Below, in pieces: positions 18,267-41,963 of a stretch of 55,304 nt of DNA. Positions within the stretch are counted from its first letter, which is position 1. The number at the start of each line of letters is the position of its first letter. The stretch comes from Actinomycetota bacterium (GTDB lineage: Bacteria; Armatimonadota; SYMT01): contig SYMT01000553.1 of assembly GCA_005805375.1 (NCBI GenBank), positions 1-55,304 of the forward strand, given 5' to 3'. The notes under the pieces were generated by a model. The model saw only the letters and a program-made list of their open reading frames with translations. It was not told where the DNA came from and did not search any database. The position numbers and the translations under genes are program-made.

Positions 18267-18289
18267 GCTGCTCTTCCCTTCTGAATTCC

Positions 18290-20157: not shown

Positions 20158-20159
20158 CC

Positions 20160-20921: not shown

Positions 20922-21599
20922 CCGCTTCTTCCTCCTACGGTGATCCCGGCATCCGTCCGCACCCGCACCAGCGTCCGCCCCGGCAGACACTGCTCGCCCC
21001 ATCCTTCGGCGCGCGCCGGGCGGGTTCCTTCGAGACGACGGACCACGCGAGTCCCTCCGATCACGCCTGCGGGTTGGGGGAGACCGGACCGGCGCGGTCC
21101 CGCAGGTGGCGATGCTGAACACGCTGTCCCTTTGAGAGCACAACCGGCTCGTCGGAGGGATCGAAGCTGCATCTTTGGCAGAGACGATACTTACCTCTTC
21201 GAGAACGTCCGTAACTGCGGCATTGGGATGTTCAGTCACGATCGTGGTGGAGGAACATACCAACCACACCTTCGCCGTGCCCTTCGACTTGCGCGCCGAC
21301 CCCTCCGTCGCCTGGGATGGGCCGGGGAACAAGCCCAATTGGGTGACCGCGGAGTTCAGCTTCCGGTACCGGTGACACTCGCTCGTCCCCGGCACGCTCA
21401 TCTGTGGTGACCGGCCCTGCCCGGTACCCGACACCACACTTAACAACCGGAAGCGCACGGGCCGCGGTCTCTGGCAGGCCTTCGCAGCCATGGGCCCCCA
21501 TCAGGTGGGCCATCTGGGGCCCATCAATGTATTCCCGCTCCCGCCGGCATCGAGGGCAAAGCGATCGAGCAGGACGGGCTTGTCAGCCCGGCGCCGCAT

Positions 21600-21980
21600 G
21601 TGAAACACCGGAAGTACGTCAACCTCAAACCCCCATCCGGCTTCACAGAGATCCCCCGCGCCGTTCGCGTCTCGGACCTCCGCCGGGAACACTACACAAC
21701 CGGAGACCGCGCCGAGTACTGCATCGGACTGTTCTCGGAGGATGCGACTCCCACCTCACGGTTGCCGCCGCTCATTCAGCGCATGGTAGCAGTGGACGCC
21801 TGCTCTCAGGCTCCCACCAATCCGCTGCTCTCACGGCACGTGTTCCTCCCTGCGACCTTCTCCGGCGCCGGCTGGGAGGCAATCCAGGAAATGAGGTCAC
21901 CGCGAGACGTCGTGGACCGTAACACCCGACCCGGCGCGTCTTTCATCGGGATGACCAGGCCGGGACGGAGCGACACCTGA
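21600..21980 (+). CDS. Hypothetical protein (weak call) within an otherwise unannotatable 1.2-kb stretch
   Basis: A hand count over the first roughly 62 codons gives about GC1 61%, GC2 48% and GC3 80%, the canonical pattern for this genome. The amino-acid composition is protein-like. Against the call: the start is GTG with no SD, I recognise no family, and an antisense ORF shares the same third positions. Confidence 0.3.
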   Translation: MKHRKYVNLKPPSGFTEIPRAVRVSDLRREHYTTGDRAEYCIGLFSEDATPTSRLPPLIQRMVAVDACSQAPTNPLLSRHVFLPATFSGAGWEAIQEMRSPRDVVDRNTRPGASFIGMTRPGRSDT

Positions 21981-22153
21981 CCCGGAGCCGGCAGGCGAGA
22001 TAGACCGGGGCGAGCCCCGACGGGGGACCCCGAATGCCTCGCACACTCGTAGGCTTGCGGACGAGGGGCGACTCGCGATCTATTCGGGCCGTCTCCGCCT
22101 GGACCACTGTTCGCCCAGAACACGCCGTCATCCAGCATCCACAGCGACTGTCC

Positions 22154-23200
22154 TCAGTGTCCCGGTGGGGGGCCTGTTCGACTGCGGCGCGCCGCCACCG
22201 GCATGCCCGCCACCTTCAGCCACTTCCGGCTGAACCGCAGCCGCGCCTCCCCGGATTGAACCATCTGCGTCCCGGCTCGGGTGTTATTCGCGGGCGGCAG
22301 GCCAACCAGCGGACCGGAAAGGTCCAGTCCGAGCACCCGCTTCCAGGCCAGATCGAAGTACATCGTGCCGGTCAGCGGCGTTTCCACCTCCCCGCGTACA
22401 TCCGGCGCCGGACGGCGCATGGTCAGCCACACATGGATGCGCGCGACGTCGCGACCGTCCCGCCGGACCACATCCTGAAGCCGGCACCGCAAGAGGGTGG
22501 CCGCATCACCGAGTTGGGCACGGAGTGCGGGCGCGTCCGGTGTCCACGTCTCCCCGGTCGCAACAGCCCTTCCCGGAAGGAAGTGGGCGTCCACACCCAG
22601 GAATTGCTGCTCCAACTCCTTTTCGCCGCCCAGCGTGGGCTTGCCCTGCTCGGCGCGCACTACCACGCGCCCGTCCGGAAGGCGCCGAACCACCGCCGTG
22701 CAGCCCTCCAGTTCGGACTTCGTTACCCGCTCCCCGAGCGGAGACTTGACGGCGTCCCCAGCTTCGCGACACCGGATGCGCAGTGCCGCCACGCCGGCCT
22801 CGTCCACCGCCAGCACCTGCTCGGAGAAACGAAAGAACTCGCGCTGCTGCGCGGTGACCCGGCGGATCACCAGCCGTGGTCTCTTTCCCTCGATCCGCTC
22901 TTCGGACACCACACGATAGGTCAGGGCCAGGCGCGATTCGGCGCGCCACTCGTCAACGTCGCCGACAGCGTACTCCGCCCCCAGCACGTACCGGCGCGGC
23001 GCCGCTCCGGAATTCTCTGCCGGGCCTTCCGGGAGTGCGCCCACACCCACCGGAGAAGCGGCAACAACCGCCAGTAGCAGCACTACGGCCTTCGCAGCAA
23101 TCGTGTTCAACACCCTGAGCACCCCGGTGGGACCATCGGCAGACCCGGACCGGGAAACATCCTCAAATGGATTACGCCGGAAGACCTGATCTCGCTCCAT
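22154..23200 (-). CDS. Membrane-anchored or secreted hypothetical protein
   Basis: The internal ATG at 23200 (MERDQVF...) is followed by a hydrophobic segment AAKAVVLLLAVVAASPVGVGA. The rest is a mixed beta-rich sequence with no recognised family. Confidence 0.55.
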   Translation of the reverse strand: MERDQVFRRNPFEDVSRSGSADGPTGVLRVLNTIAAKAVVLLLAVVAASPVGVGALPEGPAENSGAAPRRYVLGAEYAVGDVDEWRAESRLALTYRVVSEERIEGKRPRLVIRRVTAQQREFFRFSEQVLAVDEAGVAALRIRCREAGDAVKSPLGERVTKSELEGCTAVVRRLPDGRVVVRAEQGKPTLGGEKELEQQFLGVDAHFLPGRAVATGETWTPDAPALRAQLGDAATLLRCRLQDVVRRDGRDVARIHVWLTMRRPAPDVRGEVETPLTGTMYFDLAWKRVLGLDLSGPLVGLPPANNTRAGTQMVQSGEARLRFSRKWLKVAGMPVAARRSRTGPPPGH

Positions 23201-23674
23201 CGCGGCGTCCGGGCTAGCGAAGGGTGGGGAGCGCAAATCCCGCACACCGGCGCTCCCAGTTCCGGGGCCACGGAGGCGTCCTCCGGTGGCACTCGCGCGA
23301 TGCACCGGCAGTGGCGCTTTGGAGATGTTTCCCCGGCGGACGGCGCGGTGAGGTCCGCGAAATTCGGACCTCCCTGGGAACGCGCCTGCCCGCCGGCCGC
23401 CCGCCGGCACGCTCACCTCCCTGGCGGTGGGTCTCACCCATCCTGAATGACCCGCATCGGATCTGTTCCACGGCGCTCCGCCGGTGCAGGCACAACTAAC
23501 ACTCGGGATGAAGTCGGATGGAACCCTGCAACATTGGCTCGCCACTTCCGATAAGATGATTCTGCCACTCCTGGGCGCCACTTCCCGCTCGCGACAATTC
23601 GCTGGTGACTCTACACCGGAATGCCACTTCCTCAAACTTTTTCGCGCGTTGCCCTACGCCCCCGGTCCGCCCGC

Positions 23675-24634
23675 ATGCGTGCGCTGGTGCGAGACCAACA
23701 TGGGGTGCGATTGGCCCAACTTCCCCGGCCCCGGGCTGATCAGCCCAATGATGTGCTGATCCGGGTGGTGGCCGCGGGATTGTGTCGTACAGATCTCTAT
23801 GTCGCGCGTGGATTGCTGGCGGCACGCACTCCGGTGGTGCTGGGGCACGAACTCTCGGGAGTGGTTGAAGAGGTCGGCGCCGGAGTCGCCCCGCTTCGTC
23901 CCGGAGACCGGGTGGGGGTGCTCCCCTGGATTCCCTGCGCTGAATGCTCGGAGTGCTTGCGAGTTGCTGCGCAGCCACGCGCTTTGCGCTGCACGCACGC
24001 AGCCATGCTCGGCGTAGACCGGGACGGCGCGTTTGCAGAGTTCCTGTTGGTGCCGGAGGAGTGTGTCATCGCGGTCCCCGCCGGGTTGCCGCCACTCGCC
24101 GCCGCCTACCTGGAGCCGGTAGCGGCGTCGCTGGCGGTACTGAAGGCGGACCTTCACCCGGGCCAACGCGGCTTGCTGCTGGGCGAGAATCGCATCGCCG
24201 AACTCACCCGCCGCGTCCTCGCGGCGCACGACTTTCATCACCTCGCGACCTGGAGCGCAGGTCAGCCCGAGCCGGAACCCGGCGTGTATGACTTCGCCAT
24301 CGAAACGCATGCCACCCCGGGGATCCTGGAAGTCATGATGCGGGCGCTGAAGCGCGGCGGCCTGGCGGTGTTGAAGAGCCGTCCCGCGAGCGCCGTGTCG
24401 CTGGATGTACGCAAGGCCGTGCTGCGGGAACTGCGCTTCCACGGCGTCAACTACGGGAGTTTCGACGACGCCATCCGCCTGCTCGCCTCCGGGCGCCTCG
24501 AACTCGACGGGCTCCTGGGTCCTGTCTTCGCGCTCGAGGAGTACGAGGCACTCTTTGCTCACGCGGAACGGGACGAGACCGCCAAGCCTTTCTTTTCCTC
24601 GAATTCGGCCGAAGCACCGACCACCGCAGACTGA
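23675..24634 (+). CDS. MDR-family zinc-type alcohol dehydrogenase-like protein with a degenerate dinucleotide-binding motif
   Basis: The ATG is at 23675 (MRALVRDQHG). Zinc-ligand context is present: GLCRTDL and GHELSG. The structural-Zn Cys cluster reads CAECSEC...C. Where GxGxxG is expected, the sequence reads LLLGENRIAEL. Confidence 0.8.
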   Translation: MRALVRDQHGVRLAQLPRPRADQPNDVLIRVVAAGLCRTDLYVARGLLAARTPVVLGHELSGVVEEVGAGVAPLRPGDRVGVLPWIPCAECSECLRVAAQPRALRCTHAAMLGVDRDGAFAEFLLVPEECVIAVPAGLPPLAAAYLEPVAASLAVLKADLHPGQRGLLLGENRIAELTRRVLAAHDFHHLATWSAGQPEPEPGVYDFAIETHATPGILEVMMRALKRGGLAVLKSRPASAVSLDVRKAVLRELRFHGVNYGSFDDAIRLLASGRLELDGLLGPVFALEEYEALFAHAERDETAKPFFSSNSAEAPTTAD

Positions 24635-24643
24635 CCGCTTGCT

Positions 24644-26578
24644 ATGTGTGGCATTGCGGCCCATCTGTCCAGGGCAGGACCCGCAGACTCTCGCGGCGTC
24701 TCGCGCGCGCTGCGGGCGCTCCGGCACAGGGGTCCGGATGGGAGCGCCCTCTACGCGCCGCCGGGCGGCCCGGTAGCGCTGGGCCTGACCCGGCTGGCCA
24801 TCCTCGCGCCCGAAGAGCCCGCGACCGTCATTTCCAACGAGGATGGCTCCATCCGCGCCGTGGTCAACGGCGAGTTTTACGGCTTCGAGCAGATCCGCGC
24901 CGGGCTGGAGAGCCAGGGCCACCGGTTTGGCACCCGGCTCGATAGCGAGGTGCTGATCCACCTGTACGAGGAGCGGGGGTTTCGCTTCCTCGATGCGCTG
25001 CGCGGTGAGTTCGCATTCGTGCTCTGGGACTCGCGGTCCCGGCTGCTGCTCGCCGCTCGGGATCGGTTCGGCATCAAGCCGCTGTGCTATGCGGTGCGAG
25101 GCGGGGAGCTGTGGCTCGCCTCCGAGGCGAAGGCGCTGTTCGCGGCAGGCCTTCCGGCGGAGTGGGACGCGGCCGCCGTGTACCAGGCGCTCCAGGTACA
25201 GTATCTGCCTCCGTCGCGAACGTTGTTCGCAGGCGTGCGACAGGTGCCTCCGGGGCACCTGCTGTTGGCGATGGATGGGGAGGTGCAGGTCCGCCGCTAC
25301 TGGGATCTGGACTATCCGGTCTGCGACGAGCCGGACCCGGGTCGCACCGAAGCGGACTGGGTCGAGCAGGTGCGACACGACCTGAGCGAAGCCGTGCGAC
25401 TGCGACTGCGCGCAGATGTTCCGGTAGCCTGTGTTGTGAGTGGCGGCATTGATTCAAGCAGCATCCTTGGGCTGGCAGCCCGGGAATCGGGGCGCGCGCC
25501 CGATGCCTTCACCGTGGGCTTCGACGACGCGGCCTATGATGAGAGTTCGATCGCTGCTGAAATGGCGGCACGGGTGGGCGGACACCTCCACCACCTCCGT
25601 CTCAGCCGGGAGGCACTGCTCGAGGCCCTGCCCGACGCAGTTTGTGCCGGAGAAGGGCTGGCGATCAACGGGCATCTACCGGCTAAATACCTCCTGTCCC
25701 GGGTCGTACGGGATGCCGGGTATCGGGTAGTTCTCACCGGAGAGGGCGCCGACGAGTTGTTCGCGGGCTATGCCCACCTCCGGCGCGACCTCTGGCTGCA
25801 TGAAGGCGCCGGAGCCCCGCAACTCGAGGCGCTGGTTGCGTCCAATACGGCGTCAGCCGGCACGATGCTCCCGTGGGGCGAAAGCCTGCCCCTCGGTTCG
25901 CTGGTGCGAACACTCGGATTCGTCCCTGCGTTTCTGGAGGCCAAGGGTACTCTCGGCCGGCGGGCGCACGCGCTGCTCTCCGATGACTTTTTGCGGGAGT
26001 TCGCAGACAGCGATCCGTTTCATCGCCTCCTGGCGGATTTCGATGTTACCGGGCAACTCGCCGGCCGCCACCCGATCCATCAGTCCCTCTATCTCTGGAA
26101 CCGGCTGGCTCTGTCCGGCTACATTCTTCGCACCCTCGGCGACGGCACGGAAATGGCGCACTCCGTCGAAGGGAGGGTTCCGTTTCTGGACCACCACCTC
26201 TTCGAAAGCGTCCGGCAACTCCCGCCGTCACTGCTGATCCGCGGCGCTACCGAGAAATACATCCTGCGCGAGGCCGTCCGTCCCTGGGTGACGCCCACGC
26301 TCTATCACCGGCAGAAACACCCGTTCCTCGCCCCACCGCTGGCGCTCTGCGGCAGCCGGGGTGCATACGGGCTGGTGCAGGATACACTCCGGGGTAGTGG
26401 TCTCGCGGCTTTCCCGTTTTTTGACCGGCAACGCGTTCTTACGTGGCTGGATTCGCTCACGCAGGCGACCCCGGAAGAACAACGCGCCGCCGATCCGGTC
26501 CTGATGCTGGTGCTCTGCGCGGCACTGCTCCAGGAACACTATCGGCCGGGTGCATCGGCAGGAGATACGACGAGATGA
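24644..26578 (+). CDS. Asparagine synthetase B-type glutamine-hydrolysing amidotransferase
   Basis: The N-terminal MCGIA provides the class-II GATase Cys2 nucleophile. The PP-loop SGGIDSS is present. The length is 644 aa. Confidence 0.9.
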   Translation: MCGIAAHLSRAGPADSRGVSRALRALRHRGPDGSALYAPPGGPVALGLTRLAILAPEEPATVISNEDGSIRAVVNGEFYGFEQIRAGLESQGHRFGTRLDSEVLIHLYEERGFRFLDALRGEFAFVLWDSRSRLLLAARDRFGIKPLCYAVRGGELWLASEAKALFAAGLPAEWDAAAVYQALQVQYLPPSRTLFAGVRQVPPGHLLLAMDGEVQVRRYWDLDYPVCDEPDPGRTEADWVEQVRHDLSEAVRLRLRADVPVACVVSGGIDSSSILGLAARESGRAPDAFTVGFDDAAYDESSIAAEMAARVGGHLHHLRLSREALLEALPDAVCAGEGLAINGHLPAKYLLSRVVRDAGYRVVLTGEGADELFAGYAHLRRDLWLHEGAGAPQLEALVASNTASAGTMLPWGESLPLGSLVRTLGFVPAFLEAKGTLGRRAHALLSDDFLREFADSDPFHRLLADFDVTGQLAGRHPIHQSLYLWNRLALSGYILRTLGDGTEMAHSVEGRVPFLDHHLFESVRQLPPSLLIRGATEKYILREAVRPWVTPTLYHRQKHPFLAPPLALCGSRGAYGLVQDTLRGSGLAAFPFFDRQRVLTWLDSLTQATPEEQRAADPVLMLVLCAALLQEHYRPGASAGDTTR

Positions 26579-27441
26579 TTCAGAGGGAACTTCCCGCAGG
26601 CGGACCGGACGCGGTGTGCGCCGCGCTGTACGCAGGCGCCGTGTTTCTGCTGCCTGCATCCCCGCCGACCCACGCGCTGGCGGCGGATGTGGCTCGGCTG
26701 CTGGAAGAGGAGTTCGGGACGGGGCCCTTTCATGAAGCGCAATTTCGGTTGACACCCGACGAATTCTTCAACGCAGCGGGCCGCGTCCGCCGGAGAGTGT
26801 ACCTGGAGGCCCCGTTTCCGGCTCACGTTGCCGGGACCATGCAGTCGCTGGGATTCGAGCCGGACGTGCATGCCTACGACCCGCTGCGCCTGCGGGTGAA
26901 CGCCCACGCCGCCGGTGACAATCCCGACGCACGCCCGGTGTACTACGCCCACCGGGACACCTGGTACGCCAACCCCCAGTGCCAGATCAACTGGTGGGTC
27001 CCACTCCACGACGTGTCCGAGGAGGAGACGTTCGTCTTCTTCCCCGAGTACTTCGCCCGCCCCGTCGAGAATGATTCACGGGACTTCGACTACGACGAAT
27101 GGATGCAGGGCGGCCCGGAACTCCGCATCGGCTGGCAGAACCCGGGCGCGGGCCGCACCGCACACTATCCCGCATTCTTCGGAGATTTGGGCAAGACGCC
27201 GCGGGTCGGGTTCTCCGCGCGGGCCGGAGAGTTGCTCCTCTTCTCGAGCGCCCACCTGCACCAGACCGTGCCGCACCGTACCCGGCGGACGCGCTTCAGC
27301 GTGGACTTCCGTACTGCGCACATGGGCGATCACACGGCGGGGATCGGCGCCCCCAATGTGGACAACGGCTCCACCGGCTCTGCGCTGCGAGACTATGTCC
27401 TCCCGGGTGTGCCCTGGAGTTTTGCTGCCGGACACCGATAG
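26575..27441 (+). CDS. Cupin / Fe(II)-2OG-oxygenase-like protein (putative)
   Basis: The ATG at 26575 overlaps the asnB-like stop (ATGA). A candidate HxD...H triad is YAHRDTWY ... SSAHLHQTVPH, and RFSVDFR follows it. No family is confidently recognised. Confidence 0.55.
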   Translation: MIQRELPAGGPDAVCAALYAGAVFLLPASPPTHALAADVARLLEEEFGTGPFHEAQFRLTPDEFFNAAGRVRRRVYLEAPFPAHVAGTMQSLGFEPDVHAYDPLRLRVNAHAAGDNPDARPVYYAHRDTWYANPQCQINWWVPLHDVSEEETFVFFPEYFARPVENDSRDFDYDEWMQGGPELRIGWQNPGAGRTAHYPAFFGDLGKTPRVGFSARAGELLLFSSAHLHQTVPHRTRRTRFSVDFRTAHMGDHTAGIGAPNVDNGSTGSALRDYVLPGVPWSFAAGHR

Positions 27442-28248
27442 GTGGGGACCGCTGGACCATATCCTCCGATGCCGCACGAAAACTGGTGGGAGACGTTCTA
27501 CGACGAAGGGTTCGCCGCAGCCATCATGGATGCGGATGCGGATGCCCGCTCCCAGCGGGAAGCGGACTTCCTGGTGGAGGCGCTGCATCTTGAACCAGGC
27601 GCGCGTGTCTTCGATCAATGCTGCGGCATCGGTCGCCTCAGCCTGGTGCTGGCCCGTCGAGGCTTCTCCGTCGTGGGTGTGGACGCGATTCCGGCCTACG
27701 TCGCCCACGCCCAGACTGCGTGCGCGGCGGAACACCACGACGCTGAGTTCCACGCCGGCGACGCCCGAGAGTTTGTGCCCGCCCGGTCGTGCGCGGGAGC
27801 ATTCAACGCCTGGTCCAGCTTTGGTTACCTGCAGAATGACGCCGAAAACGCGCGCATGCTGTCGAGCGCCTTCTGTGCAATCCGGCCGGGTGGGCGGTTC
27901 GTACTCGACTACTTCGGCGTAGCGGCGCTGCTGCGGAGCTTTCGGGAGGTCGCTCAGTTCCAGTACTCCGGGCGGGCAGGTTCTACCGCAGTGACGCGCC
28001 GGTCCCGGCTGAACCTTCATGGCGGCCTCCTTGAGCAAACCTGGGAGTACCGCACCGCAGATGGGACACTCCACACGAAACAGAGTTGTACGAAGCTGTA
28101 TCTGCCCCACGATCTCGTGCGACTCCTCGAAGGGGCCGGCTTCCGGGTAGTTGGCTTGCACGGCAGCCTGGCGTTTTCTCCACTGACATTGGAGAGTCCG
28201 CGCTGCGTGGTCGTCGCGGAACGACCGGACCGGATACCCGCCGACTGA
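27442..28248 (+). CDS. Class I SAM-dependent methyltransferase
   Basis: Motif I is VFDQCCGIGRLSLVLARRGFSVVGVD. GTG 27442 directly follows the upstream TAG. ATG 27469 (MPHENWW) is an alternative start. Confidence 0.85.
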   Translation: MGTAGPYPPMPHENWWETFYDEGFAAAIMDADADARSQREADFLVEALHLEPGARVFDQCCGIGRLSLVLARRGFSVVGVDAIPAYVAHAQTACAAEHHDAEFHAGDAREFVPARSCAGAFNAWSSFGYLQNDAENARMLSSAFCAIRPGGRFVLDYFGVAALLRSFREVAQFQYSGRAGSTAVTRRSRLNLHGGLLEQTWEYRTADGTLHTKQSCTKLYLPHDLVRLLEGAGFRVVGLHGSLAFSPLTLESPRCVVVAERPDRIPAD

Positions 28249-31200
28249 TGTCCGCGCCACCCTCATTCCTGGAGCAACTGTCCGCCGTCGTGGAGCGCGA
28301 CCCCGCGGCGCCGGCGCTGGAGGATGCCGGCAGGTGTGTGAGCTACGGCGACCTGTGGGCGCTGGTCTGGCGGATGGGGGACCAACTGCGGCGGGCAGGC
28401 GCCGGACCGGAAGAGCTGGTCGGACTGTGGGTGGAGAAGTCGCCCGAGTACGTGGTGGCGCTCCTTGCCGCCTGGGCAGCCGGCGCCGCCTTCGTCCCAC
28501 TGGACCCGGGGCTGCCGCTGGAACGACTCGAGTTCCTGGTACGAGACTCCGGCGTGAGGCTTGCTGCCGTCAACACAGATCGTCGGACTCAGGCAGAGGT
28601 CCTCGGCCTCCGTTGTCTTCCGATCAGCATCGCCGGTTCCGTACACCCCAGGGCGGCGTCCCCCGATCCGAAGGACGCGCTCAAGAGACGTGAAAGGGCC
28701 GTGCTGCCGACCCCCGCGCCGATTCCAGGCTCGGCCGATGCACTCGCCTATCTGATCTACACTTCCGGCTCCACCGGCACGCCCAAGGGAGTCCTCGTGG
28801 AGCACCGGGGCATCGTTCCGCTGCTGGAGGCTCAGATCGCTGCGTTTGGACTCGGCCCGGGCAAACGATCGCTCTTCCTCCTCTCGACCCAATTCGACGC
28901 CTCGATCTCCGATATCGGGACAGCACTGCTGTCCGGCGCGACGCTCTGCTTCGAGCGTGGTTCGGCGCTGGAAACTGCGGCCGGCCTCCCCGCCGTGCTG
29001 GCTCGACGTGCAATCACGCACCTCGATCTACCGCCGGCACTGCTGCGTGTTTTGCGGCCGGAAGAGGTTTCTTCGTGTCTTGAGGCCCTGATCCTGGGGG
29101 GTGAGCCATGCCCTCCGGACATCATCCGCCGGTGGGCGCGAGACCGCAGGGTGGTGGTGGTCTACGGTCCGACGGAAGCGACCGTGTGCGTCAGCCTCAC
29201 AGTGTGCGACGCCGAAACATGGGATCGCCCGCTGTTGGGAAAGCCGATTTCCACCTGCCGGTTCTGCGTGCTCGACTCGGCGCTCGCACCCACTGAGCCG
29301 GGAGGGGAGGGGGAGCTATTCCTCAGTGGCAAATGCCTGGCACGGGGTTACCATCGCCGTCCGGAACTCAACGCACAGCGGTTCATCACACTCGATGGAG
29401 AGCGACAGTACCGCACCGGCGATCGCGTCCGATTGCATCCGGACGGAGAGTACGAATTCCTGGGACGCACCGATCGGCAGATCAAACGCCACGGGAAGCT
29501 GATCGCCCCCGAGGAGATCGAGGCTGTGTTGTGCACCCACCCGGCCGTTGCTCGCGCGGCCGTAGTGGTGCGAGAGCGCCCCGTGCACGGGGCGCTGCTG
29601 ACCGCCTGTATCCAACTGCGGGGCGAGAGCGGAGTGACTCCGGTGGAACTGCGTCGCCATGTCGCTGCCCGCCTCCCGGACTGGATGGTTCCGCAGCGCT
29701 TCGAGGTCGTTTCTCCTTTCCCGCTCACTGTCAGCGGCAAGCCCGATCTGGCTGCGCTGGCGTCTCAACTGGAGGACACCGATCCACACTGCCTGCCCGC
29801 AGCAGCGGAGGGGTTGCCGCACGAACGCGCACTCCGCACCATCTGGGAGCAAGTGCTGGGGCGACGGGACTTCGGGCTCGATGATGACTTTTTCGCCCTC
29901 GGGGGTGATTCTCTGGGGGTGCTTGAGGTGCTGGCGGCTGCGGAAGCGCTGGGTATCCGATTGTCGGCGCGCGTGCTGCTGGCGCATCCCTCCATCCGGG
30001 GAGTGCTGTCCGCATCGGCCGACGCCGCCCCTCCGGACGCCATCGCCGCGGAAGTGCTGCGCCGGGAGGCGCTCGCCCGCCGCCCGAATGAGTGTGCGCC
30101 TTCGCGCCCGCTGGTGACCGGGACGGAAGCCGGGGTGCAGCCGCCCGAGGTGATCCTGCTCACTGGGGCAACGGGCTTTCTCGGCAGCCGGCTGGCGGTG
30201 GAACTGCTGCAACGCAGCAACGCCCGCATCCTCTGTCTCGTGCGTGCCGACGACGCCGCAGGCGCCCACCGGCGCCTGCGGGCGGCCCTCGATCGCGCTG
30301 CGGGCCTCTCACCCGGCATGGACAGTGGCCGCATTGAGGTGCTCGCGGGCAATGTGGAGCAAGATCGGCTCGGCCTGCCGGCCTCAACCTGGGACCGGTT
30401 GGCGCGTGAGGTGGATGCGATCCATCACTGTGCCGCCCTGGTGAACATGCTGCTGCCCTTCGCCGACCTTCGGGCAGCCAACCTGGATGCGCTGCATCCG
30501 CTGCTGCAGCTCCTGCAGACGGGACGGGCGAAACGGCTGCACCACGCGTCCACCCTATCCGTGTTCGTCTCCACGGACCGGAACCAGGGTGTCATGCGAG
30601 AAGCCGATTGCCTGCAGGACACGCGGTGGGTGTACGGCGGCTACGCGCAGACCAAATGGGCGGCCGAACATCTCCTTCGCGCTGCGCGCGACTCCGGTCT
30701 CCCGGTGTCGCAGTACCGATTTGGGCTGCTGACGGGTGACCCGCACACGGGAGTCGGCGCCCGGGGGGACTTCCTGGCGCTGTTCTTTCGCGGGCTCGCC
30801 GCCTTGGGGTGCGTGCCTGAAAGTGCGCTCGACACGCAGCACGTGGACATCACCCCCATCTCCTTCGCCGCCGCCGCGATGGCCGTCATCTCGCTCCGGC
30901 ACCCCGACCCGGCCGCCTGCGGGACGTATCACATCGCAAATGAGGAGCACGCTTCCGTCCGGGCCCTCGTAGAGGCACTGTCCGGGTGCGGCAAGCGCGT
31001 CTCCGTGGTTTCGGACGCAGAATGGCGACGGCGTCTGCAGCACCTCCAGGCCGGTGGGTCGGGGAGTGCGGCTGCCGCCTGCCTCGGACTCTGCCGCAGC
31101 CTGGATGCCGACGCATTTCAGCGCCACCGCACGTTCGATCTGTTTCAGGCTACCGGGACGGTGTTCGACATGACCTGCACGCACGCCGCGCTCTGCGGCC

Positions 31201-31265
31201 GGGGGATCACCTGCCCGCGTCCGACTGCCGAACTCCTGCGCCGGTACGCCCGGTGCTCCGTCTGA
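28248..31265 (+). CDS. NRPS-like adenylation-thiolation-reductase (A-T-R) protein with no condensation domain
   Basis: The ATG at 28248 overlaps the methyltransferase stop by 1 nt (TGATG). A-domain cores are LAYLIYTSGSTGTPKGV, FDAS, YGPTE, YRTGD and GKLIAPEEIE. The PCP motif is GGDSLG, with its Ser codon at 29910-29912. The terminal thioester-reductase motif is LLTGATGFLGSRL, at about 30156-30190. Confidence 0.9.
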   Translation: MSAPPSFLEQLSAVVERDPAAPALEDAGRCVSYGDLWALVWRMGDQLRRAGAGPEELVGLWVEKSPEYVVALLAAWAAGAAFVPLDPGLPLERLEFLVRDSGVRLAAVNTDRRTQAEVLGLRCLPISIAGSVHPRAASPDPKDALKRRERAVLPTPAPIPGSADALAYLIYTSGSTGTPKGVLVEHRGIVPLLEAQIAAFGLGPGKRSLFLLSTQFDASISDIGTALLSGATLCFERGSALETAAGLPAVLARRAITHLDLPPALLRVLRPEEVSSCLEALILGGEPCPPDIIRRWARDRRVVVVYGPTEATVCVSLTVCDAETWDRPLLGKPISTCRFCVLDSALAPTEPGGEGELFLSGKCLARGYHRRPELNAQRFITLDGERQYRTGDRVRLHPDGEYEFLGRTDRQIKRHGKLIAPEEIEAVLCTHPAVARAAVVVRERPVHGALLTACIQLRGESGVTPVELRRHVAARLPDWMVPQRFEVVSPFPLTVSGKPDLAALASQLEDTDPHCLPAAAEGLPHERALRTIWEQVLGRRDFGLDDDFFALGGDSLGVLEVLAAAEALGIRLSARVLLAHPSIRGVLSASADAAPPDAIAAEVLRREALARRPNECAPSRPLVTGTEAGVQPPEVILLTGATGFLGSRLAVELLQRSNARILCLVRADDAAGAHRRLRAALDRAAGLSPGMDSGRIEVLAGNVEQDRLGLPASTWDRLAREVDAIHHCAALVNMLLPFADLRAANLDALHPLLQLLQTGRAKRLHHASTLSVFVSTDRNQGVMREADCLQDTRWVYGGYAQTKWAAEHLLRAARDSGLPVSQYRFGLLTGDPHTGVGARGDFLALFFRGLAALGCVPESALDTQHVDITPISFAAAAMAVISLRHPDPAACGTYHIANEEHASVRALVEALSGCGKRVSVVSDAEWRRRLQHLQAGGSGSAAAACLGLCRSLDADAFQRHRTFDLFQATGTVFDMTCTHAALCGRGITCPRPTAELLRRYARCSV

Positions 31266-31292
31266 GCGAAGATATCCGGGAGGGAGCAGGAG

Positions 31293-32321
31293 ATGCGCAC
31301 GGGCAAGGGGTTGGTGCTGGGCAAGTTTCTGCCGCCGCATCAAGGGCACATCTATCTGTGCGAGTTCGCACAAAACTACGTCGAGGACCTCGCGATTGTC
31401 GTCGGCACACTGAAGTCTGAACCGATCCCCGGGGTACTGCGCCATGGCTGGATGACCGAACTCTTCCCCGGGGCTCGCGTATTGCACCTCACGGACGAGA
31501 ACCCGCAGTATCCTCACGAACACCCCGATTTCTGGCAAATCTGGAAAGCCAGCCTGACGCGCATCCTGCCGTGGCGCCCCGACTACGTTTTCGCCTCGGA
31601 ACTGTATGGGTTCCCACTGGCGGAGATCCTGGGAGCGCAGTTCGTGCCGGTGGATGTCGGTCGCACGGCCGTCCCGATCAGTGGTTCGCAGATCCGGGCG
31701 GATCCGTGGTCCCACTGGGACTCGATCCCGCCGTGTGTGCGCCCCTTCTTCCTGCGGCGAGTCTGCATTTTCGGACCCGAATCCACCGGCAAGAGCACCC
31801 TCACCGCCCAACTTGCGCGCCACTTCCAGACCGTCTGCGTCCCCGAGTACGCCCGCACGTGGCTCGAACCGCGGGAAGGACGGATCTCGCCGGCGGACAT
31901 TCCGCAGATCGCACGCGGACAGATCGCCGCCGAAGACGCGCTCGCCCGGCACGCAAACCGGTTGCTGTTCTGCGACACGGACCTGCTGACCACTGCCATC
32001 TGGAGCGAAGTCCTCTTCGAGGGGTGCCCGGCATGGATCCGGGCAGAGGCGCAGGCGCGGCGCTATGATCTGACATTACTTCTCGACGTGGACGTGCCCT
32101 GGGTCGGAGATTGCGTGCGCTACCTTCCGGACGAGCGCCGGTCATTCTTCGCCCGCTGCGAGGCCGCACTTGAGGCAGCGGAGCGTCCGTACGTGATCAT
32201 CCGGGGCTCGTGGGAGGAGCGTTTCTCCAGCGCGTGTGCCGCCGTGAACGCGCTGATCCGGCCGGGCGAAGCCCCCGGGTCGCCTCAACAACCGACATTG
32301 TCTGAGAACGCTCGCGGATGA
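31293..32321 (+). CDS. nadR: NadR-type bifunctional NMN adenylyltransferase / ribosylnicotinamide kinase (no HTH domain)
   Basis: GKFLPPHQGH matches the nucleotidyltransferase GxFxPxHxGH motif. ISGSQIR matches the ISSTxIR-like motif. The P-loop FGPESTGKST marks the C-terminal kinase half. Confidence 0.75.
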   Translation: MRTGKGLVLGKFLPPHQGHIYLCEFAQNYVEDLAIVVGTLKSEPIPGVLRHGWMTELFPGARVLHLTDENPQYPHEHPDFWQIWKASLTRILPWRPDYVFASELYGFPLAEILGAQFVPVDVGRTAVPISGSQIRADPWSHWDSIPPCVRPFFLRRVCIFGPESTGKSTLTAQLARHFQTVCVPEYARTWLEPREGRISPADIPQIARGQIAAEDALARHANRLLFCDTDLLTTAIWSEVLFEGCPAWIRAEAQARRYDLTLLLDVDVPWVGDCVRYLPDERRSFFARCEAALEAAERPYVIIRGSWEERFSSACAAVNALIRPGEAPGSPQQPTLSENARG

Positions 32322-32369
32322 TTACCGGGCGTACGGATTCGACGGGGCGTGGATGGAGGTGGTACGACG

Positions 32370-33197
32370 ATGGGACTCTTACAGAATCAAGTCGCGGTGG
32401 TGACCGGCGCCGGCCGAGGAATCGGTCGCGCAATGGCGCTGGCGCTGGCCGCGGACGGAGCACGCGTTGCGCTCGCGTCCCGGTCCGTGGAGCAGTTGGC
32501 GGCGGTAGCGGGTGAGATTACCACCGCCGGCGGCACTGCTCTCTGCGTGCCGACCGACGTAGCGGACGCGAACGCGGTGCGCCACATGGCGGACACGGTC
32601 GAGGCCGGGCTGGGCCCGATTGACCTGCTGGTAAACAACGCCGGCAGCTTCTTCGCGATCGGCCCGGTGTGGGAAGTTGACCCTGCACGCTGGGAACGGG
32701 ACCTTCAAGTGAACCTATTCGGGCTGTTTCGCTGCTGCCGGGCGGTGCTCCCGGGAATGGTCGTCCGTAACTCAGGGCGGATCATCAACGTGATCGGGGG
32801 AGGGGCCGGCACGTCATTCCCGTACGGCAGTGGCTACGGGAGCAGCAAGGCAGCCGTCACGCGCTTCACGGAGTGCGTGGCTGATGAACTGCGCCTGGCT
32901 GATTCCGCCGTGGCCGTCTTTTCGCTTTCGCCGGGCCTCGTCCGCACGGAACTCACCGAGTTCCAACTCCGCAGCCCGGAGGGCCGGCAGTGGATGTCCC
33001 GAATCGAGCAAATGTTCGCAGAGGGGAAAGATGTTCCCCCGACAAGGGCTGCCGGCCTGACGGTTGCCCTGGCGACCGGACGCTTCGACCGCCTCTCCGG
33101 CCGCTGGTTCGGAGTGACTGATGACCTGGACGCCATTGCCGCCGAGCAGGACGACATCCTGCGGCACGATCGGAAGACCCTCCGCTTCCGCATCTAA
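32370..33197 (+). CDS. Short-chain dehydrogenase/reductase (SDR)
   Basis: The ATG at 32370 has a GGAGGT SD. Motifs present are VAVVTGAGRGIGRA, NNAG and YGSSKAA. Confidence 0.9.
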   Translation: MGLLQNQVAVVTGAGRGIGRAMALALAADGARVALASRSVEQLAAVAGEITTAGGTALCVPTDVADANAVRHMADTVEAGLGPIDLLVNNAGSFFAIGPVWEVDPARWERDLQVNLFGLFRCCRAVLPGMVVRNSGRIINVIGGGAGTSFPYGSGYGSSKAAVTRFTECVADELRLADSAVAVFSLSPGLVRTELTEFQLRSPEGRQWMSRIEQMFAEGKDVPPTRAAGLTVALATGRFDRLSGRWFGVTDDLDAIAAEQDDILRHDRKTLRFRI

Positions 33198-33293: not shown

Positions 33294-33684
33294 GTAAGGG
33301 GGCGGCGCAGTCCCCGAGACCGGACGGCCCGAAAGGGGCTGGAGGAACCAGTGATGACCCCGCCGGACTGCTTTTTCCGAACCCTGTGACAACAGGGTTC
33401 GGCGACCAATTTTCTCATCGAACCACTTCCCTTTCCGTTCCGGATGACCTGATGCAGGTTGCACAAGTGTTCCCCACGGAATACAGACGATCCAGTGAGC
33501 GATCAGGCGGGTGTGATGAGTGCGGAGCGGGTGATCGAACGCCGACGGCCTGTTTTGCCCGGGAGTAAGGCCGAACATGGAAGTGAGCGAAGGCCACGCT
33601 CACGTTTCATGTGAATCGATGTCACCGTCCGTAGCGATGGAGCTTTAGGGAGGGGGCACACGCTGTGTGCCCCCTCATTCTTGT
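33294..33684 (+). ncRNA. Orphan roughly 390-nt transcription unit: a structured RNA and/or a small-ORF pair (11-codon mini-ORF plus an overlapping 60-codon ORF)
   Basis: The unit is bounded by the promoter above and the terminator hairpin at 33650-33676. Hairpins include gcagtcc (33307-13)/ggactgc (33365-71) followed by TTTTT, ccgaaccctg/cagggttcgg (33377-33402), and gtgagcg/cgctcac (about 33582-33603). GGAGG (33341-45) lies 8 nt before the ATG at 33354, giving MTPPDCFFRTL with its stop at 33387-89. GTG 33386 overlaps that stop and opens a 60-codon ORF ending at 33568. I could not match any known RNA family. Confidence 0.35.
33650..33684 (+). terminator. Strong stem-loop terminator candidate
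   Basis: gagggggcacac (33650-61) pairs perfectly with gtgtgccccctc (33665-76), followed by attcttgt. The trailing tract is T-richer on the plus strand than on the minus strand. Confidence 0.55.
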
Positions 33685-33745: not shown

Positions 33746-35212
33746 TCAACCCCGCGGCGGGGTGGCGGACTTGTCTTCCGGACGCGCGGCGGGCTCAAGT
33801 TCCTGCTCGGGACCAGGACTGCGCCACTCACCTGTGAGCCGCGCGCCGAGGGGGTCGCGCGCCAGACGTCCCGCCAGTTGTCCGACCCTTGCGGCGCCGG
33901 GCTCACGCACCGAGGCCAACCCGACCATCGCGGCCCAGCGGCCGAGGGCGGATAGCAAAAACACTACTTTGAACGCGAGCGCAAACTCTTCGGGCTTCAA
34001 TCCGCTCTTCGCCACACTGACCAGCCAGCCACCGATCAGTGCGCCGCACCCGCCGGTGATGCCGAATGCCGCTTGAAACAACGCCACGTAGGTGGCTCGG
34101 TGCTCGCGCCGCGCCAGCTTGAGTGCCAGATTCGATGCGCAGAGATTGACGCCGGACCACGAGAAGCTGCCGACGAGGCTGGAGAGCACGGCGATCCAGT
34201 AGCAGGGCACCATCAACGTCCAGAACCCCAGATCCACCCTCCAGGCGCCGGGGCCCGCAAAAATCCACCAGACCGGGATGGTCCCCATCCCGACGCAGAA
34301 CAGGATCGCCACCGGGCGATAGCCATAGTGGTCCGCCAGGCGACCACAGAGCCGATTGCCTCCCGCATTGGACAGACTGGAGATGTTCTCCCAGATCTTC
34401 ATTACGAGCAGCGGGACTCCCAGGAGCTTGAGCGCGTAGAACTGCCACATCGGCGCCGCCACCTGGACGAAAAACATGATCCAGCACCGCGTCAGCGCCA
34501 GCCGGCGGAAACTCGTGTCTCGCAGGGCCGCGCCGAGCGCTTCCGCAAAGGGCATGTTCTTGCGGGCATGCGCCACCCGCACCAACGGCACGCGCGACAG
34601 CACGAGGACTCCGGTGATACCCAATGATGCGCCGAGCACGGCCATCGCGCCGATACCACGCAGGTCTCCCTTGGGCATGGTGTTGAACCACCAGTCCGCA
34701 AAGACACCGGCGCAGAGTCCGACCGGGGTACTGAACACGAGTGCGATCATGTTCTTGCGCCCGAGGAAGCGACCCCAGAACTGTACCGGCGCCAGATCCG
34801 CCACCCAGGTATACCAGGCCACCAGCGCCATCTGTCCACTCAGAGCAGCCACCCCGTTGGCCAAAATCAGCGCCCACACCGGGCCCTGCATTCCCGGACG
34901 GAGGAGGAAGAGGGTGCTGAGGCCGATGGTCATCCAGACCAGCCGGTTCAGGAACATCAACGACAGCGCGAGCCGGCGGCAATCGTCCGTCCGGGTGAGG
35001 ATCCACGAACTGCTGATCTGTAGTGCGGACACGAACTGCGGCACCGCCTGGAGGATCGCGATCTCCGGCGCGCCGGCGCCCATTTCCGTCGCAAGCTTGA
35101 CGAGAAGGATTCCCGCCGTGAGCTGACCGTTGAGGGCGCCGAGGGCGCCCTCGGTGACAACCAGGCGGCGCGCCCGGCGGAGCTGGCGGTTCGTCAGATT
35201 CCCGGTGGGCAC
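33746..35212 (-). CDS. MFS transporter
   Basis: The 488-aa product has multiple hydrophobic helices. GTG 35212 is preceded by an AGGAGG SD. The C-terminal tail is hydrophilic. Confidence 0.85.
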   Translation of the reverse strand: MPTGNLTNRQLRRARRLVVTEGALGALNGQLTAGILLVKLATEMGAGAPEIAILQAVPQFVSALQISSSWILTRTDDCRRLALSLMFLNRLVWMTIGLSTLFLLRPGMQGPVWALILANGVAALSGQMALVAWYTWVADLAPVQFWGRFLGRKNMIALVFSTPVGLCAGVFADWWFNTMPKGDLRGIGAMAVLGASLGITGVLVLSRVPLVRVAHARKNMPFAEALGAALRDTSFRRLALTRCWIMFFVQVAAPMWQFYALKLLGVPLLVMKIWENISSLSNAGGNRLCGRLADHYGYRPVAILFCVGMGTIPVWWIFAGPGAWRVDLGFWTLMVPCYWIAVLSSLVGSFSWSGVNLCASNLALKLARREHRATYVALFQAAFGITGGCGALIGGWLVSVAKSGLKPEEFALAFKVVFLLSALGRWAAMVGLASVREPGAARVGQLAGRLARDPLGARLTGEWRSPGPEQELEPAARPEDKSATPPRG

Positions 35213-41390: not shown

Positions 41391-41963
41391 TGCGATCTCC
41401 TCCATCGCTTGTGATCCCCCGGCTGAACCGGTCCGGTCGGCGTCGCGGGTTCTTCGCAGGAGGAGTATCCACGTTGCCTCGCCCCCGCTCCGAACTGCTC
41501 GACCAACTTTTCCTGTCCCCCCGCAGGCTACCCCAGAAGTCGGGAGAATTTTCTCCCTCGTTCCGTGAGTCTGCAGGACCGGGGTGAATGGAGCGAAACG
41601 GTGCTCGCTCCTAACACGTTGTAGCACACGCAATCCCAAGTAGCCCACCTCGCGGCAACTGAGATCACCTCTACTACATTTCTTTTCGGCATGTGAGAGA
41701 CCGGCCCTGGAGCCGGATGCGGGGGAATCGCGCCCGGGAGGCTCTTTGGAGAGAATCCTGGGGGCCGGACAGCCCGCGCGATCGGGATTTGGAGGATCGG
41801 CGAGGCGGAGAAACGGAGCGGATGGGGCCGAATCGTCCCGGACAACCCGCGGTCGTTCACCCGGCGCAGCGCCACCGCCGGCCGGGTGTAAGAATCCCAC
41901 TGAGGTGCAAGGGGCGCGCCCGGGGGTGGAAGGCGCCCCCCCCCAGCAGGCACTAGTCGCGTC

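Follow-up and report, generated by a model that had tools for sequence, protein, structure and literature searches.

A widely conserved six-gene cassette that may tie an NRPS-like module to NAD salvage

Introduction

Seven same-strand genes in the window (the whole 55-kb stretch of DNA analysed here) bring together a condensation-free NRPS-like protein of adenylation, carrier and thioester reductase domains (A-T-R) and a NadR-type enzyme of NAD salvage. What does such an operon make, and is it an orphan small-molecule cluster, as an earlier note on this sequence had proposed, or a part of NAD metabolism? The answer that we favour, at slightly better than even confidence, is that six of the genes make up a mobile pathway, conserved widely among bacteria, that links the NRPS-like module functionally to NAD salvage. 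We read it as a previously undescribed NAD-linked small-molecule pathway made of known enzyme kinds.

Results

All seven plus-strand open reading frames listed in the earlier note were present: a Zn-MDR-like protein (g1, 23675-24634, 319 aa), a glutamine-hydrolysing AsnB-family amidotransferase (g2, 24644-26578, 644 aa), an oxygenase (Oxy; g3, 26575-27441, 288 aa), a class I SAM-dependent methyltransferase (MT; g4, 27469-28248, 259 aa), the A-T-R protein (g5, 28248-31265, 1005 aa), a short-form NadR (g6, 31293-32321, 342 aa) and a classical SDR (g7, 32370-33197, 275 aa). The single tightly packed unit proposed earlier is borne out by the overlapping or short junctions, and the operon is confirmed as real. 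Junctions of +9, -4 (ATGA), -1 (TGATG), +27 and +48 nt were reproduced; the value of 0 between g3 and g4 holds only with the alternative GTG start of g4 at 27442. The ATG at 27469 is favoured by the public gene call and by the conserved N-terminus of orthologues, and leaves a gap of +27.

Just 5' of g1 lie three exact direct copies of GCCACTTCC on the plus strand (23541..23631; starts at 23541, 23577 and 23623). The window holds six copies against 0.72 expected, three of them within 91 nt upstream of g1, and we regard these as a candidate regulator-binding repeat and promoter region. At the other end, a strong GC-rich hairpin (33650..33676; 12-bp stem with 9 GC pairs) between the operon and a convergent MFS gene (33746-35212, minus strand; not conserved in other loci) is likely a bidirectional terminator. 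No terminator-like site was found between g6 and g7, and g7 (adh_short, 1.9e-51 by Pfam) is probably co-transcribed with the operon here. None of 74 related loci has a homologue of this SDR beside the cassette, so the conserved unit comprises six genes rather than the seven previously proposed, and g7 is a lineage-specific passenger.

These 74 loci were collected with the g3 protein as query. The complete set of Zn-MDR-like protein, AsnB amidotransferase, Fe/2OG oxygenase, SAM methyltransferase, A-T-R and NadR was found in 33 of them, across about ten phyla, and clustering of all flanking ORFs returned only these six families as widely shared. That 33 of 74 independent loci bring six of the seven genes together puts the clustering far beyond chance. 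Within the cassette, g1 and g2 homologues were adjacent in 43/43 loci and the methyltransferase and oxygenase in 54/57, while NadR followed A-T-R in 48/50, the stop codon of the one often overlapping the start codon of the other. The order of these three pairs is shuffled between lineages; the cassette is mobile and widely conserved, with the three pairs travelling together across about ten phyla. Some loci carry A-T-R without an adjacent NadR (a minority: L032, L041, L048, L065 and L074) or the methyltransferase–oxygenase pair alone (L004, L007 and L016), and the modules are therefore separable. The carriers are taxa with large genomes and many metabolites, Myxococcota and Planctomycetota among them.

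Natural fusions join the oxygenase to A-T-R (P0246 and P0348) and the methyltransferase to the oxygenase (P0244, P0281 and P0293). The specificity code of P0348, DASSVGVVC, is the same as that of the cassette; P0246 gave no FDxS match, leaving its positions 235/236/239 unscored. The fusions and the invariant adenylation-domain code suggest that the six genes serve one pathway acting on one substrate.

By Pfam, g5 consists of AMP-binding (~28287-29741), PP-binding (~29829-30005, with the carrier Ser in GGDS) and NAD_binding_4 (~30153-31253) domains. Its best whole-length NCBIfam model was MxcG, at 501 bits against a cut-off of 2300, and it scored far under all equivalog cut-offs. The Asp of the FDAS motif, to which the earlier note had drawn attention, proved to be kept as Asp235 in every orthologue, together with Lys517 and the carrier Ser; the reductase motifs GATGFLG and YAQ[ST]K are likewise conserved. 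The g5 code, DASAIGVVCK, belongs to an invariant pattern D-A-S-[A/S]-[V/I]-G-V-[V/I]-C-K (43 orthologues), which was not found in the literature searched, and the pocket resembles what we take to be Tyr-type codes.

The earlier domain assignments stood for g2, g4, g5, g6, g7 and the ADH_N part of g1; the label that did not hold firm was that of g1 as a dehydrogenase. This protein matched ADH_N (4.7e-26) with ADH_zinc_N under the Pfam cut-off, resembles TDH in its N-terminal half only, and conserves its predicted catalytic Zn ligands (C37, H58-E59 and E147). Throughout the family (43 orthologues), G170-x-x-R173 takes the place of the GxGxxG dinucleotide loop, and because this canonical NAD(P) loop is missing, the dehydrogenase label is insecure and a redox role uncertain. 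Its partner g2 matched Asn_synthase (2.1e-76) and GATase_7 (1.5e-32) by Pfam and TIGR01536 at 385 bits (cut-off 267). Both catalytic features noted earlier are present, with Cys2 found in 42 of 43 sequences (the window plus 42 orthologues; the remaining one shows a gap there) and a PP-loop SGG[IL]DS that reads SGGIDSS in the window; the nearest PDB entries were AsnB 1ct9 and the hydroxyamidotransferase 7ylz.

For g3, no Pfam match exceeded the cut-off. The HxD...H triad, a mere candidate in the earlier note, is invariant in orthologues (H126-x-D128...H229...R240; invariant residues H126, D128, H229, R240 and S242), and an AF2 model (pLDDT 91.4) matched PhyH-type Fe/2OG dioxygenases by Foldseek (PtlH, SptF, AndA, SnoN, KanJ and MysH; probability 1.0, TM 0.4-0.5, 10-16% identity), pointing to a divergent PhyH-superfamily Fe(II)/2-oxoglutarate oxygenase. 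The methyltransferase call for g4 was upheld by Methyltransf_25, _23 and _31 (~1e-10 to 1e-11, Pfam); its motif I reads DQCCGIG, and it is weakly similar to N-methyltransferases, e.g. daptide and Gly/Sar enzymes.

The g6 protein, with NMN adenylyltransferase and ribosylnicotinamide kinase domains, aligned over both to structurally characterised NadR (PDB 8x7f, 1.7e-41; 1lw7, 2.7e-35) and scored 295 bits with TIGR01526, below the 341 cut-off. The motifs GKFLPPHQGH, ISGSQIR, Walker A GPESTGKST and DTD are conserved. The lack of an N-terminal HTH domain sets g6 apart from the trifunctional regulator of enterobacteria. With a Calothrix NadR encoded directly after PnuC it shares 64% identity, and that protein nests inside the cassette NadR clade in a neighbour-joining tree drawn without support values. 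We therefore take g6 to be, in all appearance, an ordinary NR-kinase/NMN-adenylyltransferase orthologous to PnuC-coupled NadR, which argues against its being a tailoring enzyme that nucleotidylates or ribosylates the product, as previously suggested.

Within the window, g6 is the sole NAD gene; nrtR, pncA/B and NAMPT were not found there. Other genomes place the cassette among NAD-salvage genes. NrtR proteins (NUDIX + NrtR_WHD) are encoded beside it in six loci of three phyla (L017, L021, L024, L029, L039 and L051), and in Sulfidibacter the stretch between nrtR and the MDR gene holds two perfect palindromes, predicted to be NrtR operators. In an Akkermansiaceae MAG (L039), nrtR, the gene for an ADP-ribosylglycohydrolase (ARH), pncB, pncA and the cassette form one same-strand array; in Lentisphaera, ARH and pncB follow the cassette; in a Pirellulales MAG, NAMPT and Prs precede it. 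An Acetobacteraceae/Burkholderiaceae variant combines NadM-NAMPT-A-R-NadR with methyltransferase and oxygenase, its A and R being separate proteins without a recognisable carrier domain and with the specificity code kept. The five loci of this variant are 71-93% identical and thus amount to one or two observations.

Discussion

The NAD-salvage and NrtR contexts, found in many lineages and overlooked when the locus was called an orphan NRPS-like cluster, indicate that the likely biology is an NAD-linked pathway. Its recurrent linkage to NAD-salvage genes points to a likely role in vitamin B3/NAD metabolism and not in the making of antibiotics. The pathway does appear uncharacterised, as first supposed: no description of the cassette was found among curated family models, defence models or the full-text literature searched. 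All of its catalytic motifs have been kept: the carrier Ser, GxxGxxG and YxxxK of the reductase, the Fe/2OG triad, Cys2 and the PP-loop of AsnB, and both NadR active sites. In the pathway that we envisage, the adenylation domain would activate one large, uncharged alpha-amino acid and load it onto the carrier domain, where the Fe/2OG oxygenase and methyltransferase would most likely modify it, and the reductase domain would release it as an amino aldehyde. The MDR-like protein and AsnB may then handle further alcohol/aldehyde and carboxylate groups, the latter being converted to carboxamide, while NadR would turn nicotinamide riboside or NMN into NAD. The whole would be switched on together with NAD salvage by way of NMN, the amidated branch, either feeding that branch or drawing on it. 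Against this picture stand the finding of no NAD gene but NadR in the window, the separability of the modules, and the finding of no phosphoribosyl- or glycosyl-transferase among the six conserved genes that could bring an amino-acid-derived product to the pyridine nucleotides. The cassette is present in four cultured carriers (Limnoglobus roseus PX52, Stieleria magnilauensis TBK1r, Sulfidibacter corallicola M133 and Archangium violaceum), and is thus open to experiment.

An ordinary secondary-metabolite cluster, making a bioactive amino aldehyde, amino alcohol or pyrazine-type compound with the NAD genes as accessories, is a possible but rather unlikely reading. In its favour, known reductive-release NRPS-like enzymes have the same architecture (best models MxcG and AusA), the carriers are the metabolite-rich taxa named above, and some A-T-R loci lack NadR. 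The NAD genes could then be a cofactor top-up or a self-resistance bypass, the latter conceivable since NadR, like NadV/NadM, reaches NAD through NMN and needs neither NadD nor NadE; the two accessory sets thus meet at the NMN route, the pattern to be expected of a bypass if the deamidated route were inhibited. However, neither an exporter, a resistance gene, a condensation domain nor a secondary-metabolite-type regulator is conserved, the recurrent regulator being NrtR, of NAD metabolism. The L039 cassette shares its array with pncB and pncA, and the A-T-R–NadR adjacency is tighter than expected of an accessory gene.

We consider it improbable that the NadR-like protein has been neofunctionalised into a kinase plus nucleotidyltransferase that would first phosphorylate an amino alcohol from A-T-R and the MDR-like protein and then turn it into an NDP-alcohol, in a Kennedy- or LicA/LicC-like manner, a reading close to the 'nucleotidylation chemistry' of the earlier note. 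The HxGH nucleotidyltransferase superfamily includes NMNAT as well as phosphocholine cytidylyltransferases, which, with the very tight adjacency and the sub-threshold TIGR01526 score, lends this idea some appeal. Against it, the PnuC-adjacent NadR, at 64% identity, nests inside the cassette clade, so that there is no separate neofunctionalised clade; both domains keep the motifs of characterised NadR, and neighbours such as NrtR, PncA/B, NAMPT and NadM are sensible only with real pyridine nucleotides. Least credible of all is chance adjacency, or several independent transcription units without common function, even though the SDR and MFS genes of the window are unrelated passengers and pair order differs between genomes. 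Even very distant genomes show the gene set in synteny, which excludes the chance juxtaposition that the earlier note had allowed for; the 33 complete sets, the fusions and the overlapping codons all contradict it, and complete genomes (CP071793, CP036432, CP042425 and CP069396) make assembly chimeras implausible.

How does this proposed NAD-linked pathway compare with known systems? The A-T-R protein has the domain order and motifs of the MxcG terminal module, AusA, the Lys2 alpha-aminoadipate reductase and fungal HqlA/LnaA-type tyrosine reductases (Asp235/Lys517 adenylation domain, carrier Ser, SDR-type reductase with GxxGxxG and YxxxK), from which conversion of an aminoacyl thioester to an amino aldehyde would be expected; unlike the cassette protein, no member of this group is known to be paired with NadR or to lie in an NAD-salvage operon. 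The PhyH/SyrB2 group of Fe/2OG enzymes has members that act on amino acids tethered to a carrier; g3 shares the PhyH-type fold and triad, in a family with natural fusions to A-T-R, although its likeness to any solved enzyme is low (at the TM and identity values above). Saframycin-type tyrosine tailoring follows a methyltransferase, hydroxylase and terminal reductase logic, and the cassette has in common with it the methyltransferase partner and the Tyr-like pocket.

On the NAD side, g6 shares both catalytic domains with the NadR of PnuC-NadR nicotinamide riboside salvage, but the cassette lacks PnuC and its NadR follows the A-T-R gene instead. The NrtR family of Rodionov and co-workers is said to regulate NAD salvage operons (nadV-nadM-prs and pncA-pncB); related loci carry NrtR, candidate palindromic sites, pncB, pncA, NAMPT, Prs and NadM-Nudix, whereas A-T-R, Oxy, MT, the MDR-like protein and AsnB are not known to take part in any NAD pathway described so far, and the extra salvage genes are missing from the window itself. 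In the Francisella NMN synthetase route, NaMN is amidated by a NadE-family enzyme before NadM acts. The cassette amidotransferase is of the AsnB family rather than the NadE family and is always paired with an MDR-like protein, for which that route has no need. The cassette nonetheless likewise encodes a PP-loop glutamine amidotransferase and an NMN adenylyltransferase, in L039 after pncA and pncB, and if the AsnB homologue amidated the nicotinate nucleotide, L039 would complete a route from Nam through Na, NaMN and NMN to NAD.

Organisation of the operon

Seven plus-strand ORFs at 23675-33197 (g1-g7) encode, in order, a medium-chain dehydrogenase-like protein (MDR-like), an AsnB-type amidotransferase, an Fe/2OG oxygenase (Oxy), a SAM methyltransferase (MT), an adenylation-carrier-thioester reductase protein (A-T-R), a NadR and an SDR. 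An earlier note had described them from the sequence as an orphan seven-gene NRPS-like operon. All seven ORFs exist as described there, and each family call was upheld by Pfam and NCBIfam. The junctions g1/g2 (+9), g2/g3 (-4, ATGA), g4/g5 (-1, TGATG), g5/g6 (+27) and g6/g7 (+48) were all reproduced; the junction of 0 reported for g3/g4 holds only with a GTG start at 27442, which abuts the g3 stop. The start of g4 is ambiguous between this GTG and an ATG 27 nt further downstream (27469), the latter being favoured by the public gene call and by the N-termini of orthologues. The unit itself proved to be real, conserved and, by the curated models and full-text searches consulted, uncharacterised, but the conserved set comprises six genes (g1-g6, hereafter the cassette), as g7, a classical SDR, never recurs in related loci.

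No terminator-like sites were found between the genes of the operon; its far end is marked by a GC-rich 12-bp hairpin (33650-33676), beyond which a convergent MFS gene begins the next unit. Immediately 5' of g1, at 23541-23631, lie three exact direct-repeat copies of GCCACTTCC with spacings of 36 and 46 nt; the whole 55-kb window, which has 67% G+C and is part of an 87.9-kb ENA metagenome contig (ERZ27257035 k141_101944), contains 6 copies against 0.72 expected. The repeats are a possible binding site of a regulator. A palindrome search upstream of g1 gave no NrtR-like operator or comparable palindrome, which leaves these repeats as the only such feature there. When the window and four related loci were scanned with Rfam, the one riboswitch to emerge was a cobalamin riboswitch in locus L017 (105 bits, 18540-18759, minus strand); it is situated a few kb 3' of the cassette, close to genes for ribonucleotide reductase, and is probably unrelated to the cassette.

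Upstream of the operon, a divergent minus-strand block at 17148-21491 encodes a GFO/IDH/MocA oxidoreductase, a 378-aa protein of unknown function, an SDR and a PhyH dioxygenase of canonical type (1.4e-31), and is followed by three small ORFs (21232-23200) with no Pfam match; none of these genes is conserved beside the cassette in other genomes. The window also codes on the minus strand for a 2091-aa alpha-2-macroglobulin-like protein (10678-16953), an SLH-domain protein (39177-41900) and GlyQ (52959-53852).

Conservation of the cassette across bacterial phyla

With aligned g3 homologues as the query, a scan in which each GTDB species was represented by a single genome yielded 74 loci, which were then searched by tblastn with the seven window proteins. 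Synteny across genomes bore out the unit: MDR, AsnB, MT, Oxy, A-T-R and NadR were present together in 33 of the 74 loci, and the majority of the loci lacking the full set were truncated at contig ends. Carriers of all six genes included members of Planctomycetota (among them Limnoglobus roseus and Stieleria magnilauensis, both in culture), Myxococcota, Verrucomicrobiota, Lentisphaerota, Acidobacteriota (Sulfidibacter corallicola), Armatimonadota, and Alpha- and Betaproteobacteria (Accumulibacter, Propionivibrio). MAGs of Sericytochromatia, Vulcanimicrobiota and Xenobia carried five of the six, and Archangium violaceum only Oxy, A-T-R and NadR.

Within the cassette the genes are organised in three rigid pairs, MT-Oxy (adjacent in 54/57 loci), ATR-NadR (48/50) and MDR-AsnB (43/43), which differ in relative order and orientation from lineage to lineage. 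All-against-all clustering of the flanking ORFs gave no seventh widely shared family, neither an exporter nor a transferase. A plasmid search with the oxygenase returned only ~30%-identical homologues, which lie in unrelated surroundings on megaplasmids of Rhizobiales. The order Oxy before MT, unusual among the loci, is common to the window and an Armatimonadota MAG, from which the best matches of the window also come; in both respects the window resembles an Armatimonadota-like organism more than Planctomycetota.

Together with intact catalytic motifs, internal fusions and a single substrate code, described below, this distribution establishes the cassette as a conserved, horizontally mobile six-gene unit.

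Catalytic features of the cassette proteins

The A-T-R protein (g5) has an A domain scoring 353 bits against TIGR01733 (cut-off 317) with FDAS and SGKPD present, a carrier domain (PP-binding, 2.3e-13) whose GGDS serine is kept in 43/43 orthologues, and a reductase domain scoring 253 bits against TIGR01746 (cut-off 213) with conserved GATGFLG and YAQ[ST]K motifs; Pfam gave no match to a condensation domain. Both Asp235 and Lys517 are present in the A domain and conserved in 43/44 sequences, which indicates an alpha-amino acid substrate, as had already been proposed from the FDAS aspartate. Motif anchoring gives the specificity code DASAIGVVCK for the window protein and D-A-S-[A/S]-[V/I]-G-V-[V/I]-C-K for 43 orthologues. 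The pocket is lined by small residues with none that is charged, and the nearest codes are of the Tyr type (DASTVAAVCK). A Tyr-like substrate is only a lead. The code was not found in full-text searching of the literature.

Natural fusions join cassette functions in single proteins, with Pfam and motif checks in agreement: Oxy-A-T-R fusions occur among the best g3 matches (P0246, 1220 aa; P0348, 1300 aa), and MT-Oxy fusions in P0244, P0281 and P0293. The specificity code of P0348 and of a split-gene variant (see below) is the same as in the window; that of P0246 was scored incompletely, as no FDxS match was found in it.

The facial triad and the 2OG-binding arginine of g3 (H126, D128, H229 and R240) do not vary among 23 sequences. 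Its predicted model (pLDDT 91) matched PtlH, SptF and AndA with a Foldseek probability of 1.0, the resemblance to PhyH-type Fe/2OG dioxygenases being distant (TM 0.4-0.5), and no Pfam family reaches its gathering threshold, PhyH scoring 17.0 bits (cut-off 22) and 2OG-FeII_Oxy_5 19.1 bits (cut-off 27). The protein represents a separate, divergent family within the PhyH superfamily, with 946 members in a library of 50%-identity cluster representatives. The g4 protein is a class I SAM methyltransferase with no specific family assigned.

The MDR-like protein (g1) retains a GroES-like domain (ADH_N, 4.7e-26) and the catalytic zinc ligands C37, H58-E59 and E147, conserved in 43 sequences. In place of the GxGxxG/A dinucleotide loop its Rossmann loop reads G-E-N-R-I-A; GxGxxG is missing in g1 and in all 42 orthologues, only G170 and R173 being conserved at residues ~168-176, and the nucleotide-domain model is not reached (ADH_zinc_N, 17 bits vs a cut-off of 31.8). 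The structural-zinc cysteines are likewise not conserved. The ligand of the protein may be an unusual one, or NAD(P) binding may be lacking altogether. Its partner g2 is a full AsnB-type amidotransferase (TIGR01536, 384.7 bits; cut-off 267.1), and both the Cys2 nucleophile in its MCGIA N-terminus and the PP-loop SGGIDSS are kept in orthologues. That AsnB is invariably paired with an MDR-like gene (43/43) argues for a dedicated acceptor different from the aspartate of true asparagine synthetase.

Over both of its domains, g6 aligns with the crystallised NadRs 8x7f and 1lw7. Its nucleotidyltransferase motifs, GKFLPPHQGH and ISGSQIR, match those of the two structures and recur throughout a set of 53 sequences; in its kinase domain (AAA_28, 2e-40), GPESTGKST (Walker A) and the DTD motif are conserved as well. 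The L. lactis NadR paper describes no substrate in the canonical sites. The protein scores below the curated NadR cut-offs (TIGR01526, 294.9 vs 341.15 bits; PRK08099, 148.8 vs 201) of models built largely from gamma-proteobacterial and Firmicute sequences. It has no N-terminal HTH repressor domain of the trifunctional enterobacterial type and begins at the NMNAT domain, its residue 6 matching residue 4-5 of truncated crystallised NadRs and position 66 of the full-length model. Proteins sharing 62-70% identity with g6 are plentiful. One of them, P0177 of Calothrix NIES-2098 (64% identity), is encoded directly 3' of a PF04973 NMN_transporter (PnuC) gene and falls inside the cassette-linked NadR clade of a neighbour-joining tree built without support values.

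For NadR, the earlier note had thought of possible nucleotidylation or ribosylation chemistry, and a related idea was that g6 activates an amino alcohol in a Kennedy-like manner. The clade position of the PnuC-linked orthologue and the conservation of both catalytic sites lead us to reject g6 as a tailoring kinase/nucleotidyltransferase for the product; we read g6 as a real, housekeeping-type NadR, predicted to convert NR to NMN and NMN to NAD.

Association with NAD salvage genes

The genomic context of the cassette in other organisms is the main new result of this analysis: in one lineage after another it is linked to genes of NAD salvage and to the regulator of these genes. The reading in the earlier note is upheld in part; this NAD link, overlooked there, is the defining feature of the cassette. 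An nrtR gene (230 aa; NUDIX and NrtR_WHD domains) lies directly upstream of or divergent from the cassette in six loci of Myxococcota, Acidobacteriota and Verrucomicrobiota (L017, L021, L024, L029, L039 and L051). The nrtR/MDR intergenic region of S. corallicola (L024) contains two perfect TAGTGGC-N5-GCCACTA palindromes (0.02 expected), which are candidate operators, and in the remaining NrtR loci lineage-specific palindromes precede nrtR. In an Akkermansiaceae MAG (L039), nrtR, an ADP-ribosylglycohydrolase gene, pncB, pncA and the six genes follow one another on one strand with overlapping junctions. Genes for an ADP-ribosylglycohydrolase (ARH) and pncB come after the cassette in Lentisphaera (L045), and NAMPT and Prs genes lie closely 5' of it in a Pirellulales MAG (L036). 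The 55-kb window itself contains no nrtR and none of the other extra salvage genes (pncA/pncB, NAMPT etc.).

A variant cassette in Acetobacteraceae and one Burkholderiaceae MAG has MT-Oxy adjoining NadM(Nudix)-NAMPT-A-R-NadR. In these loci (L031, 10827-17273; also L034, L042, L044 and L055), A (528 aa) and R are separate proteins, with no carrier domain or GGDS motif recognisable in either, so that acyl transfer to the reductase lacks an evident path. A DUF2330 protein is conserved upstream in the Acetobacteraceae variant.

Genes of the ADP-ribosylglycohydrolase family adjoin the cassette in three lineages (L039, ~3260-4306; L045, 9296-10285; L042, 5932-6747), which hints that ADP-ribose or an ADP-ribosylated species is part of cassette biology. 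SPFH/Band-7 proteins are encoded near the cassette in two unrelated lineages (L031, 5533-6792, Acetobacteraceae; L036, 2412-4466, Pirellulales).

Proposed role of the cassette

In the reading proposed here, the A domain would load a large neutral alpha-amino acid, which Oxy and MT would tailor while it is held on the carrier, as suggested by the Oxy-A-T-R fusion and by PhyH/SyrB2-type precedent. The R domain would then release an aldehyde, the MDR-like protein and AsnB could act on an alcohol/aldehyde and on a carboxylate, and through NadR the cassette would connect with NAD synthesis at its NMN branch.

What the unit supplies can be read in more than one way: its NRPS-like half may make an NAD precursor, may consume a pyridine nucleotide, or may require the NMN route only as a bypass. 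The gene order in L039 is suggestive of a route in which PncA and PncB feed an AsnB that would amidate NaMN/NaR, with NadR completing a path to NAD that would need neither NadD nor NadE; four cassette enzymes, however, have no place in it. Another reading makes the cassette an undescribed supply to the NAD pool: starting from an alpha-amino acid, A-T-R, Oxy, MT and the MDR-like protein would make or remodel a pyridine precursor, the AsnB-family enzyme would add the carboxamide as a non-orthologous NMN/NR synthetase, and NadR would end the route at NAD. NAD biosynthesis would then have a third kind of starting point, controlled by NrtR, in addition to those from aspartate and tryptophan. We consider this reading unlikely, and give a truly new entry into NAD metabolism a minority chance. 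De novo nicotinamide from Orn, Gln or Leu skeletons was also considered on paper and rejected, as none of these suits the gene set and at the same time an A-domain pocket free of charge.

Few areas of bacterial biochemistry are mapped as well as NAD metabolism, and it would be unexpected to find five enzymes with no known NAD role there in the company of NrtR, PncAB, NadV or NadM across about ten phyla. Should the cassette make or salvage an NAD precursor, it would represent a new vitamin B3 branch and would give NRPS-like reductases and AsnB-type amidotransferases a role new to them; should its product be an NAD-derived or NAD-mimicking metabolite, it would define a class of natural products that is new and whose target space is obvious. 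Even for an ordinary metabolite cluster, a conserved bypass by the NMN route would still mark the NAD pathway as the target. The cassette is small and self-contained, so the question is directly testable, and cultured, sequenced carriers exist in Limnoglobus roseus PX52, Stieleria magnilauensis TBK1r, Sulfidibacter corallicola M133 and Archangium violaceum.

Comparison with known systems

None of the NCBIfam equivalog models fits the cassette, and full-text literature searching found no described gene set of this kind with a known product. PADLOC gave no relevant match, and a defence system was dismissed. The stieleriacine cluster of Stieleria, which yields a Tyr-derived product, consists as published of NAS, MT, ThiF and nitroreductase genes. 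The stieleriacines were the sole Tyr-derived planctomycete pathway compared, and their genes are unlike those of the cassette; with the gene sets differing, stieleriacine biosynthesis was rejected as its function. By these models and searches, the cassette appears to be a new combination of known families, in which an NRPS-like reductive module is joined to NAD salvage.
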